From a virus (lineage: Duplodnaviria; Caudoviricetes), in the IMG/VR virus record IMGVR_UViG_3300030613_000008, positions 29,508 through 93,507 of that record: DNA of 64,000 nt. One strand, 5' to 3'. The position numbers were made by a program, and so were the translations under genes. The notes beneath the pieces are model-generated. The model was not told where the DNA came from. It ran no database searches and saw only the letters and a list, made by a program, of their open reading frames with translations. Positions 29,372-51,446 of the stretch are shown in pieces. How positions within the stretch are numbered: position 1 is the stretch's first letter; every line of letters starts with the position of its first letter.

Positions 29372-29974
29372 GTGGCGTTCATCAAAAAAAGCGGCTACTC
29401 GCAACCGCAAGCCCCGGAGAACCCCGTGCCGCCGTCGCAACGCGCGCAACTGGCGCTCGGGTTCCGACACTACGATGATAGCGACAAGGCCCCGAGCGAG
29501 TTTGAGACGACGGAGCGGGAGCACGTCGTGAAGCAGCTTCGCGCCGAGGTCCGCGCCGAAGCTCCGGCCGGTTGCCGTTGCCCCATCTGCGACCGTGTTG
29601 TGAAGTCGTACCACCGGGCGATGAACGCGGATATGGCGCGGTTCCTCATCCTGTTGTGTCGCGAATACCTCGCCAAGCCGCCCGGCACGTTCGTGGACAT
29701 CCGCACGATTTCGGTCCGGGGTGGCGACTACGCGAAGCTCACCCATTGGGGGCTGGTAGAGCAGGCGCACAACGACGACCCCGCGAAACGCTCTAGCGGC
29801 CTCTGGCGTCCGACTCCGCGCGGGCTGGCATTCGCCCAAGGGACGGCGACGGAGCCGAGCCACGTGGTGCTTCTCGACAACCAGGTGCAGGGGTTTGACG
29901 AAGACCGCGTGACCATCTGGCAAGCGCTCGGGACGCACTTCAACTTCGAGGTGCTTTGGAGGGGGGAGAAATGA
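29372..29974 (+). CDS. Hypothetical protein (CPIC, winged-helix-like)
   Basis: RBS AGGAGG, GTG start. Confidence 0.55.
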   Translation: MAFIKKSGYSQPQAPENPVPPSQRAQLALGFRHYDDSDKAPSEFETTEREHVVKQLRAEVRAEAPAGCRCPICDRVVKSYHRAMNADMARFLILLCREYLAKPPGTFVDIRTISVRGGDYAKLTHWGLVEQAHNDDPAKRSSGLWRPTPRGLAFAQGTATEPSHVVLLDNQVQGFDEDRVTIWQALGTHFNFEVLWRGEK

Positions 29975-30414
29975 AAGACGACACAACGAACTGGTACGAG
30001 GTCCGCTGTCACGACGGGATTCAGTGGCGAACGTGCGACCTCTCCGAGTGCCACCCCGGAGACCTCGTGAGGGTCAACTCAAGCGATGGTCCCGGCGAGC
30101 CGTTTATCTACGCGGAGCCCGAGCCGCTTGAGCACAACGTGGGGGCGGTGCCGACCGTTGACGAGCCACCTGCCAAACGGAGTTTTGACCCAAGGGAGGA
30201 CATCGTTGCGCGCATCCAATCGTTCTCGCCGAGTCGTCACGGCCCGGCATCCTGCCCGTGGTGCGGCGAGTTGTTCGGGCCTCAGTGGGAGATTGAGGAC
30301 GTGATAGTCAAGTCGATGGATTGGGACGGAGACGAAGAGGAGCGGAATGGTAGCCCGCACGCCATCACGTGCCCGCGCTGTGGTTGGCTCGGGACGTTCG
30401 TGCGTTTGCCTTGA
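29971..30414 (+). CDS. Hypothetical Zn-ribbon protein
   Basis: CPWCG and CPRCG; ATGA overlap. Confidence 0.55.
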   Translation: MKDDTTNWYEVRCHDGIQWRTCDLSECHPGDLVRVNSSDGPGEPFIYAEPEPLEHNVGAVPTVDEPPAKRSFDPREDIVARIQSFSPSRHGPASCPWCGELFGPQWEIEDVIVKSMDWDGDEEERNGSPHAITCPRCGWLGTFVRLP

Positions 30415-30439
30415 CTTCGGAGACGGCGCGTTGTAGAAA
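30411..30439 (+). promoter_or_regulatory. Sigma70-like promoter of the replication operon
   Basis: TTGACT-17 nt-TAGAAA. Confidence 0.55.
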
Positions 30440-30443
30440 AGAA

Positions 30444-30565
30444 GTGCAATGCAGAACAATACTGGTCAGATTCTCCGATCGAAGCATCTGCGGGTAGACC
30501 CTCCCAAGGTTCTGCATTGCACCGCAGGTGCTTCGTTCAGAGAAGCTGACACGTTTGGAGGGTTC
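30444..30565 (+). ncRNA. C4/CI-like antisense hairpin in the replication-operon leader
   Basis: 29-bp stem 30465-30493/30522-30550; loop complementary to 30444-30457 (14/14) and to RBS 30555-30565. Confidence 0.65.
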
Positions 30566-30569
30566 GACG

Positions 30570-30737
30570 ATGGCCGAGTCACACGCTGAAATCCAGGCAC
30601 AACTCGAAGCCGCGAACCTGCGCTTGATAGAGAAGCGGCGGGCGCTCGGGATACGAGACGACCGGCCGGTTCACGTCGGCGACGTCGTTGGCGACGTGCT
30701 CGCGGACCTGCGGCGGGAATCGGAGGAGGGGAGATGA
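30570..30737 (+). CDS. Small protein coupled to the replication initiator
   Basis: RBS GGAGG, ATG 30570, ATGA overlap with the next gene. Confidence 0.6.
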   Translation: MAESHAEIQAQLEAANLRLIEKRRALGIRDDRPVHVGDVVGDVLADLRRESEEGR

Positions 30738-31828
30738 CCTCTCAACGCGAACCGTTCACCTGTCTCTACCGGGGCATCTGGAACGATGACAAGTTTTGGC
30801 TGCGCTCGGAACTCGGGCAGCGGGTTTACCTCTACGTCCTGTCCACTCCTCTCGGTAACGGGCTTGGCTGTTTCAAGGCCGGGATGGCGGCGATGGCCGA
30901 GGACCTTCGAATGTTGCCGTCAAGGTTCGCCGAAGGTTTCGGGGAAGGTTTCGATGAACGTTACGGGGAACCTTTGTTCGACTATGACGAAGGGGCTCGG
31001 GTGGTTTTCATCCCGAAGTATTTAGAACGCAACCCCCCGAGCAACCCGAACGGAATCCGGGCACTCGCCAAGGCGTTCGTTTCCATACCGGACTGCAAAC
31101 TGAAACTCGATTGCTATCAAACGGTTAAGGCGTTTGTTGAGAGGAAAAACCCAACAACAGAGGGAGGGGGAAAAACGTTCGCGCAAGCATTCGCCGAATC
31201 ATTCGCTAAACCTTCGCCGAACCATACCGCCAACGTTGACCGAACCATGCCGTTATGGTTCGAGGACTCACCAGGAATAAATACCGTTCCCGTTCCCCCT
31301 TCCGTTCCCTTGGCCGTTCCCGATACCTATACCGGGAGTGCGTGCCGCACTCCTCACGCGCCCGCGCGCCTTGAAATTGAAGATCCAAGAGGAAACGAAA
31401 ACGAGTGGGACTGGAAAGCGTTACCACCCGAACTGATAGAACAGCTTTCAATTTTGAACGGCGGGAAGAAAGACAGACACGTCGCGGCGGTTCGACTCCT
31501 CTGGTACTGGCCCGACCTTGGAGCGCAGGAAGCACAGGAACTCGCCGTCCAAACGTGCGGGCTGTACATCGACAAGGGGTTGGACATTCGAGAAGCGCTC
31601 GCGACAGCGGCCACGGACCGGCGGCGCAAGGACGGGCTACAGGGATTTGGTCGCTTCCTGTCTCGCTGGCTCGGCATCGAGTTGGACCGACAGCACAAGG
31701 CAAACCGAGCGGCAGGCGGACCCGGCATCGTCGAACCTCCGAAGAAACAAGCGGCGTGGGAAATCGAAGCGACCCGGATTCAAAAACTGTGGGATGAAAA
31801 ACATGGCAAAGAACCCGCAGCCGGTTGA
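30734..31828 (+). CDS. Phage replication initiator / replisome organiser
   Basis: IWNDDKF...VYLYVLS...GCF...MAEDL domain; directly upstream of DnaB. Confidence 0.7.
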   Translation: MTSQREPFTCLYRGIWNDDKFWLRSELGQRVYLYVLSTPLGNGLGCFKAGMAAMAEDLRMLPSRFAEGFGEGFDERYGEPLFDYDEGARVVFIPKYLERNPPSNPNGIRALAKAFVSIPDCKLKLDCYQTVKAFVERKNPTTEGGGKTFAQAFAESFAKPSPNHTANVDRTMPLWFEDSPGINTVPVPPSVPLAVPDTYTGSACRTPHAPARLEIEDPRGNENEWDWKALPPELIEQLSILNGGKKDRHVAAVRLLWYWPDLGAQEAQELAVQTCGLYIDKGLDIREALATAATDRRRKDGLQGFGRFLSRWLGIELDRQHKANRAAGGPGIVEPPKKQAAWEIEATRIQKLWDEKHGKEPAAG

Positions 31829-33209
31829 TGGCGGGCGCGTCCCGCCGCACAACCTGGAAGCCGAAGCGGCCGTGCTCGGGGCGGTGCTTCTCAACAACGC
31901 GGCCTTCCACGTGGCGGCCCCGCGTATCACGTCGGCAGACTTCTACGCCTGGAAGCACCGCTACATCTGGGATGCCATGCTCCGGCTGTCCAAGTTGGGC
32001 GAACCGATTGACGCCGTGACGGTCGGCAACGACCTGATACAAGCGGGGAACCTGGAGAAGTGCGGCGGTACCCTGGCTCTCGACGGACTGATAGAAGAGG
32101 TGGCGACCGTCGCAAACGTCGCGCACTACGCAACTATCATCGCGCGCAAGGCGGCACTCCGGCGAGTCATCTACGCGGCGCAGACCATCGTGGCGGAAGC
32201 GTTCGCGAACGGTGGTGAGGACGAAACCGTTGAGGAGTTTTTAGCGCAGTCGCGCGCTGACTTCACGGCCGCGTCCCTGTCCCTGGCTTCCACGGGCAGC
32301 GTATGCCAGTCGGCGAGTCAAGGAATGCACGACCTATTCAACGCCTTGGAGGCGGGTAAGCCCATCGTCGAGACGTTGCCAATAGGGTTCGGCGGGGTGC
32401 GGATTCCGAGGGGCACGCCAACGGTCATCGGCGGTAGACCCTCAAACGGAAAGAGTGTTTGCGCCATGACGGCAGCTCGGAACCTAGCGACGCAAGGGCG
32501 GAGCGGCATTTACTTCTCGCTTGAGGAGACATCGCGGGTTCAGTGGGCGCGGCTTGCGTGCCAGATGTCGGGCATCGCGGCCAAACGAATCATCGAATGC
32601 GACGTGCGAGGCAACGAATTCAAGGTGCTCTCGGACGCGGCGAGCGAGGCGGCCCGGTTCAACCTCTACCTGTGTGACCGAACGGGCGTCGACTCCATGT
32701 TCGTCCGGCAAGAAGCGGCGGCGCACAAGGAAAGGCACGGCCTGGATTTTGTGGTCGTCGATTACATCCAACTCATCCGCGAGAAGGAGCGATCGGGGCA
32801 GGCGCGACACGAGCGGTTCGCAGAAGCCATGCAAGGGCTTGTGGACCTCGCGCGAGAACTGGACATCGCGGTTATCGTCGTTTCGCAGATTCGGCGGAGT
32901 GAATTCAACCCCAGCAAAGAACCGCCACCGCCGAGCATCGAACAACTGAAAGAGTCGGGCGAAATCGAGCAAGCGGCGAAACTCATTCTGCTTTTGCACT
33001 ACCCCTACTTCTACACAAAGAGCATCGAGGGGGCGGAGCAGAAGCCGAACGCCTTGCGGATGGACATCGCGAAGGACAGCATCGGAGAAGGCGGGGTGCG
33101 GATGCTTCACGCCGTCATGCCTCGCCTGTGGGTGGGAGACGTGGAGACCGTATTCGAGCCGGGGCAACCGGGCGAGACGTATCGAGAGAATAGGCCGGGG
33201 GAGTATTGA
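31803..33209 (+). CDS. dnaB: Replicative DNA helicase
   Basis: PPHNLEAEAAVLGAVLL, GGRPSNGKS, YFSLE, VVVDYIQL, SQIRR, LKESGEIEQAA. Confidence 0.95.
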   Translation: MAKNPQPVDGGRVPPHNLEAEAAVLGAVLLNNAAFHVAAPRITSADFYAWKHRYIWDAMLRLSKLGEPIDAVTVGNDLIQAGNLEKCGGTLALDGLIEEVATVANVAHYATIIARKAALRRVIYAAQTIVAEAFANGGEDETVEEFLAQSRADFTAASLSLASTGSVCQSASQGMHDLFNALEAGKPIVETLPIGFGGVRIPRGTPTVIGGRPSNGKSVCAMTAARNLATQGRSGIYFSLEETSRVQWARLACQMSGIAAKRIIECDVRGNEFKVLSDAASEAARFNLYLCDRTGVDSMFVRQEAAAHKERHGLDFVVVDYIQLIREKERSGQARHERFAEAMQGLVDLARELDIAVIVVSQIRRSEFNPSKEPPPPSIEQLKESGEIEQAAKLILLLHYPYFYTKSIEGAEQKPNALRMDIAKDSIGEGGVRMLHAVMPRLWVGDVETVFEPGQPGETYRENRPGEY

Positions 33210-37186: not shown

Positions 37187-37215
37187 TTGACAAATCCAAC
37201 CGTCGGCCGTACATT
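37187..37215 (+). promoter_or_regulatory. Sigma70-like promoter
   Basis: TTGACA-17 nt-TACATT. Confidence 0.7.
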
Positions 37216-37223
37216 GCAATCAT

Positions 37224-37320
37224 GCTTCGCGCCTCCCAAGAAGCTCCCGACGGGCCACACGAGAGTCCCCCCACTCCCGTTGTCCACCTCACGTCGAGGG
37301 CTTCTTAGGGGGCGTGAGGC
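37224..37320 (+). ncRNA. Long leader hairpin carrying anti-GAGGTGGAC sequence
   Basis: 29-bp stem 37224-37252/37292-37320 with 4 G-U and 2 C-A; loop contains GTTGTCCACCTCA. Confidence 0.65.
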
Positions 37321-37333
37321 CGCAAGGGGATTC

Positions 37334-37876
37334 ATGCCGCACCGCTCTAAAGCCTTCCTCGCCTTCGTCCACACCGCGCGTCGTGACGGCCTGTGCGTGG
37401 CGTGCGAGTCGCGGACGTGGAGCCAACTTCACCATTTTGGATCCGATGGCGGCGCGGGGCTCAAGCCGTCGGACTATCTGGTTGTGCGGTTGTGCCGGGA
37501 GTGTCACGCGGATTCGGTCTCCGGACGAAAAATTCTGGCAATGCGCCGAGATGGGTTCGACCAGATGGCGGCCGACTATCTCGCCGACGCGGCGGACTCC
37601 CTGTCCCTGTGGTCCGCGCACCTCGAAAGCCGCCTTGCCGAATCCGAGGCGAACGGATGCGCTCGTGACGAGCTGGTCACGTGGCTCATGGATTACGACG
37701 CAACCGACCTGGCAGGCGCGGAGGCGTGGCTTCTCGCGTGGGCGCACCGTCGGCACGCGAACGCGCTAGAAGGGTTCTGCGAGGCGTTGGGGGAGGTTGT
37801 GAAGGCGGACAGTCTGGAAGGCGCGCGGTTCACCGCGGACCGGGCGCTAAAGGCGTGGCTTCCCGGTCAAACTTGA
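37334..37876 (+). CDS. DUF968/NinG-like His-Cys nuclease-fold protein
   Basis: RSKAFLAFV..CVAC..HH..GAGLKPSD..VRLCRECH. Confidence 0.7.
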   Translation: MPHRSKAFLAFVHTARRDGLCVACESRTWSQLHHFGSDGGAGLKPSDYLVVRLCRECHADSVSGRKILAMRRDGFDQMAADYLADAADSLSLWSAHLESRLAESEANGCARDELVTWLMDYDATDLAGAEAWLLAWAHRRHANALEGFCEALGEVVKADSLEGARFTADRALKAWLPGQT

Positions 37877-40202: not shown

Positions 40203-40232
40203 CTGAGGTGGACAAGTCGGAAGGGGATTGCA

Positions 40233-50546: not shown

Positions 50547-50833
50547 CGACCACCAACGACCTGGAACGGGAAGAGCGCGCCTACGAGAAGACGACCGTTG
50601 ACCGCAGCGTCTACGGCAACTTCACGATTGCCGACCTGCGTGAAGCGTTCGACCGCGTGTCGCCGAAGAACTGGAAGGACCCGATCGCGTGTTCGTGCAA
50701 CGGTGGGACGGTCAACCTCGTGTGCGCGGCCATCTCGTTTTTCACGGGGTCGGTGGCCCACGTCGAAGTCGACGTGCGGACGATGACCTACTACATTGAG
50801 GCGGAGGGGTACTACGCCGCGTGCGGGTCGTGA
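50543..50833 (+). CDS. Small early protein
   Basis: AAAAAGGAGA RBS; NWKDPI...AISFFTG...AEGYY. Confidence 0.65.
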   Translation: MTTTNDLEREERAYEKTTVDRSVYGNFTIADLREAFDRVSPKNWKDPIACSCNGGTVNLVCAAISFFTGSVAHVEVDVRTMTYYIEAEGYYAACGS

Positions 50834-50893
50834 GCCGAAACCGCCTGCGGGCGGTCGCCACGGTTGGCTACCGTGGCCTGATGAGGCAGCCGA
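50834..50893 (+). ncRNA. Type II hammerhead ribozyme
   Basis: GCC-GAAA-stem III(CCGCC/GGCGG)-TC-stem I(GCCACGGT/ACCGTGGC)-CTGATGA-GGC; loop I can pair with 3' AGCCG. Confidence 0.85.
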
Positions 50894-50908
50894 AAAGGAG
50901 AGACAACG

Positions 50909-51354: not shown

Positions 51355-51431
51355 GGTTCCCCCCTGGGCGGTGCGTCCGAGCCGGGTTAATCTCCTTTTC
51401 CTGGTTTGGGCGTACCGCCGAGGGGTGAACC
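51355..51431 (+). ncRNA. Long hairpin with anti-AAAAGGAGA loop
   Basis: 32-nt arms, 5 G-U, 2 mismatches; loop TTAATCTCCTTTT. Confidence 0.65.
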
Positions 51432-51446
51432 GAAAAGGAGAACACG

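Follow-up and report, generated by a model that had tools for sequence, protein, structure and literature searches.

A conserved leader RNA with crossing pairings, and possibly a translational switch, at the head of a replication operon in an uncultivated tailed phage

The replication operon of an uncultivated tailed phage is headed by a leader RNA whose design, as judged from the comparison of related sequences, is real and has been conserved through compensating changes. The window analyzed here, i.e., the whole 64,000-nucleotide stretch of this virus record, carries the leader between a promoter-like sequence and the first Shine-Dalgarno (SD) sequence of the operon. The leader combines a predicted 5'-terminal segment with a long imperfect hairpin, in the loop of which the exact complement of that segment lies next to a complement of the SD. 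The interpretation that is preferred here, albeit tentatively and with somewhat less than even confidence, is that this promoter-proximal structured RNA of approximately 125 nt would gate the translation of the first cistron through an intramolecular two-state switch. On the sequence evidence, the leader is best classed as a new and conserved form of translational control by a leader RNA, here before the replication genes of a phage, outside both the C4/CI group and the plasmid rep-leader groups.

The virus record spans 93.5 kb, has a GC content of approximately 62%, and is 98% complete according to CheckV, with a GC skew that is positive across the whole window, which is consistent with the predominance of plus-strand genes. 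A Zn-ribbon-like gene (29956-30414) lies directly upstream from the leader, and the first cistron downstream from it is a conserved 55-aa ORF (30570-30737, plus strand), which matched no Pfam or PHROG family and has homologues at 57-84% identity. The stop codon of this ORF overlaps the start (ATGA) of a gene for a DnaD-like helicase loader/initiator of 364 aa (30734-31828, plus strand; phrog_25711, 1.8e-12; phrog_1701, DnaD-like helicase loader, 5e-6). This gene is followed by one for a DnaB-type replicative helicase (31800-33209, plus strand; PF03796, 1.8e-39; PF00772, 6e-27; phrog_19, 7.5e-64), the start of which is approximate, as the mechanical ORF runs from 31518 and the proteins of the relatives have 465-471 aa, and then by an amidase gene. 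One homologue of the small ORF, the 57-aa P0017, comes from a 93.3-kb contig for which one source names an Acidobacteriia MAG, and this is either a possible hint to the host or possibly a phage contig binned with that MAG. Within the N-terminal part of the initiator gene, iteron-like tandem 12-nt repeats (TTCGCCGAAGGT and variants) are found at 30926-30973 (plus strand), a candidate origin inside the initiator ORF, as in lambda O.

Searches for PF00589, PF00239, PF02195, and PF01381 (integrase, resolvase, ParB, and HTH_3 repressor) found none of these in the 98%-complete, 93.5-kb genome, and the phage looks virulent on this gene content, with room left for distant or novel lysogeny genes. The RNA-based immunity that had been suggested in a preliminary description of this DNA is unlikely for the same reason.

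The leader opens with segment A (GTGCAATGCAGAAC; 30444-30457, plus strand). This segment, which is predicted to form the first 14 nt of the transcript, includes an AUG at 30449 and is the exact complement of segment A' (30509-30522, plus strand) in the 3' half of the hairpin loop. Helix B, which was recovered in the inverted-repeat listing, is formed by a 5' arm at 30465-30493 and a 3' arm at 30522-30550 (both plus strand), with A' abutting the 3' arm and, in the window, overlapping it by 1 nt. The whole loop covers 30494-30521, and its 5' half (30494-30508, plus strand) contains GACCCTCCCAA at 30497-30507, which includes the anti-SD GACCCUCC at 30497-30504. The SD of the first cistron, GGAGGGUU (30557-30564, plus strand), begins 6 nt past the base of helix B and is conserved in the relatives. 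Both the 14-nt exact complementarity and the composition of the stem had been given in the preliminary description, and both proved to be exact, the former at these coordinates and the latter on a pair-by-pair recount, in which the 29 positions comprise 25 Watson-Crick pairs, one U-G pair, and three mismatches.

The loop had also been described as complementary to the next ribosome-binding site (RBS), TTGGAGGGTT. The anti-SD is real, and the pairing is not gap-free: it runs over 8 contiguous bp between GACCCUCC and GGAGGGUU, one G-U pair included, followed by a mismatch and two A-U pairs, with a duplex energy of -15.9 kcal/mol in the window. A further match of the same loop, to the RBS GGAGGGTC at 370-377, does extend over 8 of 8 positions, and the gene concerned does encode the tail tube (phrog_4542), but a specific target is not what this match represents, because the plus strand has 30 occurrences of GGAGGG and the complementarity is that of a generic SD.

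No other perfect local inverted repeat of the 93.5-kb genome reaches the length of the A/A' pair (14 nt), with approximately 0.06 such 14-mers expected, and neither a further copy of A nor any other target of A' was found in this genome. The predicted fold of the leader has a z of -3.2 relative to shuffled sequences, and no intrinsic terminator was found near the leader.

The transcription of the leader is predicted from a promoter-like sequence, TTGACT-17 nt-TAGAAA (30411-30439, plus strand). This site, which had been named as the promoter in the preliminary description, is missed by a scan for the strict promoter consensus; it is nevertheless conserved, as the pattern TTGAC-N18-TAG is invariant in five aligned relatives and is found in both L145 and L127 as well. 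The TGA stop codon of the upstream gene (30412-30414) lies inside the -35 hexamer TTGACT, an arrangement that is repeated in L125, L126, and L145.

Relatives of the leader were located through protein homologues of the initiator and the small ORF, followed by inspection of the contigs on which these are encoded. This yielded eight leaders with one design, from phages and metagenomes, i.e., those of the window, L125, L126, L121, L130, L145, L146, and L127, of which the L130 leader is identical in L131 and L132, while L133 and L134 represent a looser variant. L127 stood outside the training alignment and was found by the covariance model R1 only, with a score of 76.9 bits and an E-value of 2e-17. 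In all of these leaders, the promoter is followed by A, the 5' arm of helix B, the loop (anti-SD and then A'), the 3' arm of helix B, the SD, and the first cistron.

The dimensions of these elements are held within narrow limits. In all eight leaders, A and A' form a perfect Watson-Crick run of 11-14 nt with no G-U pair, and their complementarity begins 5-6 nt past the -10 hexamer, at a 5' end that is itself predicted, and terminates at the top of helix B. The spacer between A and the stem measures 5-8 nt, helix B keeps 29 positions with 1-6 G-U pairs and 1-3 mismatches, and A' directly adjoins the 3' arm (a gap of 0 nt) in seven of the eight leaders, with the 1-nt overlap of the window as the eighth case. 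Every loop contains a CCCUCC, ACCCUC, or CCUCC anti-SD motif, the duplex energy of which with the respective SD falls between -11 and -17 kcal/mol (8/8), and the SD starts 4-13 nt downstream from the stem. Conserved nucleotides are limited to the SD, the anti-SD, and the 5' part of A.

Outside this group, the leader is missing upstream from the initiator in L001/L120, L135, and L136, and L135 and L136 have a MerR-like gene upstream. The closest full-genome relative, G001, which holds L001, has no copy of the leader, which makes the element dispensable; homology to the window sets in there precisely with the SD. The IMG/VR scan for the 14-mer returned single chance matches only, and the search of a phage collection by blastn with 3 kb of this region returned no match. 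The candidates L123 and L124, from a structured pattern scan, and L139-L144, from a second one, were discarded as chance matches, and the 8-nt complement of L144 lies inside minus-strand coding genes. The sole match in the scan of genome contigs, L122, a distant initiator (35% identity) in a Magnetobacteriaceae MAG, was set aside as well, as the region upstream from it is AT-rich and has no such leader.

In a plain MAFFT alignment of seven of these sequences, 92.5% of the cells of the proposed helices hold standard pairs. Both sides have changed in 25 of the 42 pairs (7/13 in helix A and 18/29 in helix B), counts that overstate the number of independent events, as the sequences are related, while the control in which the partner is slid by 1-3 columns keeps this relatedness intact and drops the pairing to 32-44%. 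None of 500 shuffles reached the observed covariation. The mismatch at stem position 12 (C30476 opposite A30539) is itself conserved in six of the seven sequences. The preservation of the complementarity in relatives, which the preliminary description had named as a point on which its interpretation could fail, is thus borne out, and the complementarity is kept through compensatory changes.

The two helices differ in the kind of pair that they tolerate, given that helix A is Watson-Crick in all 96 cells, with no G-U pair, whereas helix B holds G-U pairs in 31 of 232 cells (13%) and mismatches in approximately 8%. The plus-strand hairpin is more stable than its minus-strand counterpart in all eight leaders, and the score of the covariance model R1 is 127 bits for the plus strand versus 32 for the minus strand. 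Because of the G-U pairs of helix B, this asymmetry of stability, and the strand scores of R1, the structure belongs to the plus-strand RNA.

These same data bear on the idea of an element that acts at the DNA level, in which A and A' would be inverted protein-binding sites (an autoregulatory operator or part of an origin) or a priming signal folded from single-stranded DNA. A role of this kind would fit the exactness of A/A' on both strands, with no G-U pair, and the position of A, which overlaps the predicted start site and adjoins the initiator gene, and segment A of the window also contains a near-palindrome, TGCA-A-TGCA. This palindrome is not conserved in the relatives, however, and a palindromic operator was rejected on that account. 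Protein-binding sites rarely stay identical to each other at all of their 11-14 positions while their sequence drifts, and the covariation of helix B is rich in G-U pairs and strand-specific. The number of copies is, moreover, limited to two, separated by 65 bp, and the repeats that do resemble iterons are located within the initiator gene instead. L001, finally, keeps an initiator that is 78% identical and fully conserved in its N-terminal part, and yet has no A/A'. A DNA-level element is therefore regarded as very improbable.

The AUG within segment A opens a candidate near-leaderless upstream ORF (uORF), which in the window has 46 codons (30449-30589, plus strand), runs the length of the leader, and terminates in frame +1, 19 nt beyond the main ATG. 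Among nine leaders, i.e., the eight plus L133, seven have such a uORF of 44-46 codons, the exceptions being L127, in which it was lost, and L133, in which it is missing. The AUG lies 10-11 nt past the -10 hexamer and, by this measure, a few nt from the predicted 5' end, the frame, +1 in every case, closes 16-19 nt downstream from the main ATG, and the spacings between the AUG of the uORF and the main ATG (121, 121, 118, 115, 121, 118, and 121 nt) are all equal to 1 modulo 3, despite several indels. The frame is open in the five aligned leaders and in L145 and L146. Ribosomes are known to bind 5'-terminal AUGs on SD-led mRNAs, which can affect the downstream cistron (PMC4965119).

The open frame is weakly significant when taken alone (product of P = 0.018 over five leaders), the peptide sequence lacks conservation, and no bias in GC3 is seen. 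In L127, the AUG has become ACA, and both of these changes are compensated in A' (CAU to UGU), which leaves helix A intact. Because this AUG was lost by changes that are compensated in A', it is the pairing that is under selection, and the uORF constitutes an optional layer; its candidacy as the core of the element was downgraded with this loss and the lack of codon bias.

In the preliminary description, control was taken to be exerted through the small ORF downstream by its coupling to the initiator, and the coupling itself stands, in the form of the ATGA overlap. The action via the small ORF does not, as the first gene after the leader varies from the small ORF to the initiator itself (L130) and an HNH gene (L127); the leader stays with the first SD of the operon irrespective of the gene behind it, and the element does not, therefore, work via the small ORF as such. 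The HNH endonuclease gene of L127 (1893-2504), which separates the leader from the initiator and relies on the SD of the leader, looks like a homing-type insertion that took over the regulated position. In L130, the gene upstream from the leader (587-1333) resembles a transcriptional repressor (phrog_2328, 1e-6; weak HTH_31), and that phage may be temperate, unlike the phage of the window.

The segments of the leader are ordered A, B 5' arm, anti-SD, A', B 3' arm, and SD, and they pair 1-4, 2-5, and 3-6, so the three helices cross each other mutually and one molecule cannot form all of them in full. By a geometric estimate of our own, the complete A/A' helix and the complete helix B would be incompatible in one molecule, and the loop could not reach the SD with the stem standing. 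A pseudoknot of the H type in which A and B are both complete was discarded on the same kind of estimate, in which a spacer of 5-8 nt cannot span 13 plus 29 bp. The energies of the individual duplexes across the leaders are -20 to -24 kcal/mol for A, -11 to -17 for the anti-SD/SD pairing, -26 to -30 for the upper part of B, and -11 to -18 for its lower part, with -42 to -49 for the full hairpin B, all of them duplex energies, as ViennaRNA cannot score crossing helices and the pseudoknot energies and steric limits used here are rough estimates of our own. In these terms, the exchange of the upper part of B for A plus the anti-SD/SD pairing would be roughly even. When transcript prefixes that end at A' were folded, the A/A' helix was the minimum-energy structure in all five that were tested, and the A/A' pairing should thus be the first to form during synthesis.

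The intramolecular switch that is tentatively preferred builds on these features, and in it we infer the transcription start, both conformations, the translation of the uORF, and the effect on expression. In the ON state, the 29-position hairpin B would be intact, and both the 5' tail (A and its AUG) and the SD would be single-stranded. In the OFF state, A would be paired with A' and the anti-SD with the SD, and these two helices, 1-4 nt apart, would be stacked as a pseudoknot of approximately 21 bp, for which the upper 17 bp of hairpin B would be open, while its lower 11 bp might persist as the third arm of a junction. As A and A' are transcribed before the 3' arm of B, a new transcript would first adopt the A/A' form, and the leader would be born OFF, or poised. 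Any ribosome translating the uORF would reshape the switch and might initiate again at the main start, and the gate as a whole would control the operon of the small ORF, the DnaD-like loader, and the DnaB helicase at the level of translation initiation.

A cis interpretation is favored because the partners all lie within 125 nt, A/A' is expected to form co-transcriptionally, the energies are balanced, and the conserved mismatch of stem position 12 divides helix B at the boundary between its lower and upper parts, where the OFF model needs a hinge. Against it, the full hairpin B may, by its duplex energies, simply win at equilibrium, and the lack of G-U pairs in helix A, as against 13% in helix B, is unusual for an ordinary cis helix and fits an antisense RNA and its target better.

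The principal rival, self-antisense control in trans on the lines of P1 C4, P4 CI, or IS10 RNA-OUT, is possible but doubtful. Here, the loop, either that of a whole leader or that of a hairpin fragment released by a nuclease, would pair with the segment A and the SD of sister transcripts. Hairpin B would be the stable ground state, which displays both the anti-SD and A', and the new helix would sit flush atop helix B. The binding of the 30S subunit and the 5'-terminal AUG would be blocked according to the dosage of the transcript, resulting in negative feedback or in the late shut-off of the loader and the helicase. An arrangement in two molecules would allow all of the pairings to form without opening helix B, which, according to the geometry argued from the spacers, is impossible in cis. 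It would also suit the contrast between the two helices in their G-U pairs and mismatches, and internal mismatches are typical of the long stems of antisense RNAs. The position of A at the predicted 5' terminus, together with an A' the end of which coincides with the top of helix B in all eight leaders, recalls the capture of the RNA-IN 5' tail by the RNA-OUT loop (PMC4737173). The CI RNA of P4, too, controls replication genes from inside the same transcript (PMC4825925).

On the other hand, neither a terminator nor a recognizable processing signal that would free a small RNA was found, there is no match to the Rfam C4 family, and the intramolecular A/A' helix forms first during transcription and would compete. 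With no other target of A' in the genome, the RNA would act only on its own leader, and the phage, which looks virulent, would have no lysogenic immunity for it to serve.

Two further hairpins of the same phage carry loops with complementarity to an SD. Hairpin 2 (37224-37320, plus strand; region 37187-37336), which follows a promoter-like TTGACA-17-TACATT, has a 29-bp stem and a 39-nt loop, in which GAGTCCCC is complementary to the following SD, GGGGATTC. The same loop also holds GTTGTCCACCTCA, the complement of which occurs at 40204 and 53603, beside HNH and TnpB insertions (annotated as such in the preliminary description); in total, this loop has seven matches at up to two mismatches, versus 1.4 expected. 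Hairpin 3 (51355-51431, plus strand; region 51355-51441) has a 32-bp stem and a 13-nt loop with TCTCCTTTTC, the exact complement of the SD GAAAAGGAGA just after the stem and of a copy of this SD at 50892, and the complement of this loop has three matches, versus 0.06 expected. The GAAAAGGAGA RBS at 50892 also marks the end of a type II hammerhead ribozyme (50833-50895, plus strand; 53.3 bits, against a gathering score of 37).

The anti-SDs in the loops of hairpins 2 and 3 cannot reach their SD in cis with the stem standing, which hints at an action in trans and counts in favor of the self-antisense reading of the leader. An RNA-only dosage sensor can also be envisaged, in which sister leaders would pair loop to ends, with the loop of one on the 5' terminus and SD of another and the new helices flush on the hairpin, and the translation of the loader and the helicase would fall as the copies of the transcript, and hence of the genome, rise, with the leader as perhaps one of three hairpin channels for different classes of RBS. 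Such a sensor is regarded as rather improbable.

The leader might also serve in processing or stability alone. In this case, the stem would be an RNase III-type site or a 5' stabilizer heading the operon, comparable to the T7 R sites or the lambda N leader, A/A' would guard the 5' end, and the anti-SD would have no regulatory role. The length of the stem, which exceeds two helical turns, its internal mismatches, its promoter-proximal position directly before the first SD, and the existence of three such hairpins at the head of operons in this phage are all compatible with this. A role in processing alone would nevertheless leave unexplained a compensated A/A' helix of 11-14 bp in all eight leaders that is incompatible with the full stem, and the presence of an anti-SD motif in all eight loops, which makes this explanation improbable.

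An RNA that acts on the polymerase, in put-like processive antitermination, or a ligand-sensing riboswitch might also be expected to be a conserved promoter-proximal structure at the head of a long operon. In the present leader, however, nucleotide conservation has the limited extent given above, the long and regular stem offers no conserved internal loop for a binding pocket, no terminators are found nearby, and no Rfam family is matched, and such a function can hardly be credited. The search of Rfam with cmscan over 30200-30800, on both strands and at E-values of up to 10, returned only four chance matches to miRNA models, and a scan of the whole window at the gathering thresholds returned only the hammerhead, away from the leader.

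The closest parallels to this layout are found in phage P4 and in the C4 RNA of P1 and P7. Both C4 and CI are processed by RNase P to a stable RNA of approximately 70-77 nt, with one loop sequence that is complementary to two copies of a single target, upstream and downstream (seqA/seqC and a1b1/a2b2), and C4 of P1 acts on a small ORF that is coupled to the gene after it, a layout like that of the window. As in these systems, regulator and target share one strand and one transcript, the former upstream from the RBS of the latter, in an order that is conserved in the eight leaders, and a hairpin loop is complementary to one upstream site and one downstream site, the latter of which covers the RBS. 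In P4, the genes controlled by CI are replication genes, and a single sequence, seqB, pairs with both seqA and seqC (PMC4825925). The P4-like arrangement proposed in the preliminary description can be maintained to the extent that an upstream partner, a loop, and a downstream RBS partner precede a small ORF, but the parallel is loose, as there are here two distinct loop segments with one partner each, and A and the SD region are unrelated in sequence.

Membership of the C4/CI type did not hold up even at the permissive Rfam threshold, as the leader has no match in sequence or structure to the Rfam C4 family, which we take to be RF01695. The leader also lacks any evident tRNA-like features for processing by RNase P, its upstream partner is the transcript's own 5' end, and it is found in a phage with no detectable lysogeny genes.

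In IS10, the loop of the RNA-OUT hairpin captures the unstructured 5' tail of RNA-IN, and the resulting duplex hinders ribosome binding (PMC4737173). The predicted 5' end of the present leader is complementary to the loop of a long imperfect hairpin. RNA-OUT is, however, transcribed from the opposite strand, which makes its complementarity automatic, whereas the complementarity here lies within one strand and one transcript and has to be maintained by selection.

Structured leaders also control the initiator after transcription in the IncFII plasmids (tap-repA of R1) and in IncI1 and IncB, through the repY-repZ pseudoknot (PMC8053102 and references there). These plasmid leaders have an ORF the stop of which falls on the start of the following gene or shortly after it, and a pseudoknot between a loop and the RBS region (PMC8053102), to which the candidate uORF and the predicted pseudoknot of the present leader may be compared. 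They differ in their countertranscript, which is encoded on the opposite strand, while none is indicated here: no promoter-like site was called for one on either strand, and the minus-strand hairpin is the weaker one in all eight leaders. In addition, the pseudoknot of IncI1 and IncB is an activator of translation, while the predicted pairing of the present leader would occlude the SD, and the uORF of the present leader would be near-leaderless, with 44-46 codons, unlike the leader ORFs of the plasmid rep genes.

Finally, among the leader hairpins of phages that sequester an RBS or are sites for RNase III, long imperfect stems are found just upstream from the SD at the head of early operons in the lambda N leader and cIII, the T7 R sites, and T4 e and soc, where alternative folds set the level of translation. 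In these lambda, T7, and T4 hairpins, the SD lies in the stem or against it, whereas in the present leader it lies outside, and its complement is placed in the loop, beside the complement of the 5' end.

The post-transcriptional control of initiators has been well worked out for plasmids, P1, and P4, and, to our knowledge, little is known of such control in uncultivated, large, high-GC tailed phages. The leader described here represents a compact RNA motif that is missing from Rfam and has strong covariation support, with an unusual topology in which three mutually crossing pairings link the 5' end, a hairpin loop, and the RBS. Short synthetic constructs would suffice for testing this leader, and the host is not needed. 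If the leader is a switch, it would serve as a clear-cut model for a translational gate that is set kinetically. If, on the other hand, its pairings are intermolecular, same-strand antisense control of the C4/CI kind could arise independently and work outside lysogeny. A dosage sensor, if true, would amount to self-antisense feedback without a separate antisense gene, in a virulent phage.
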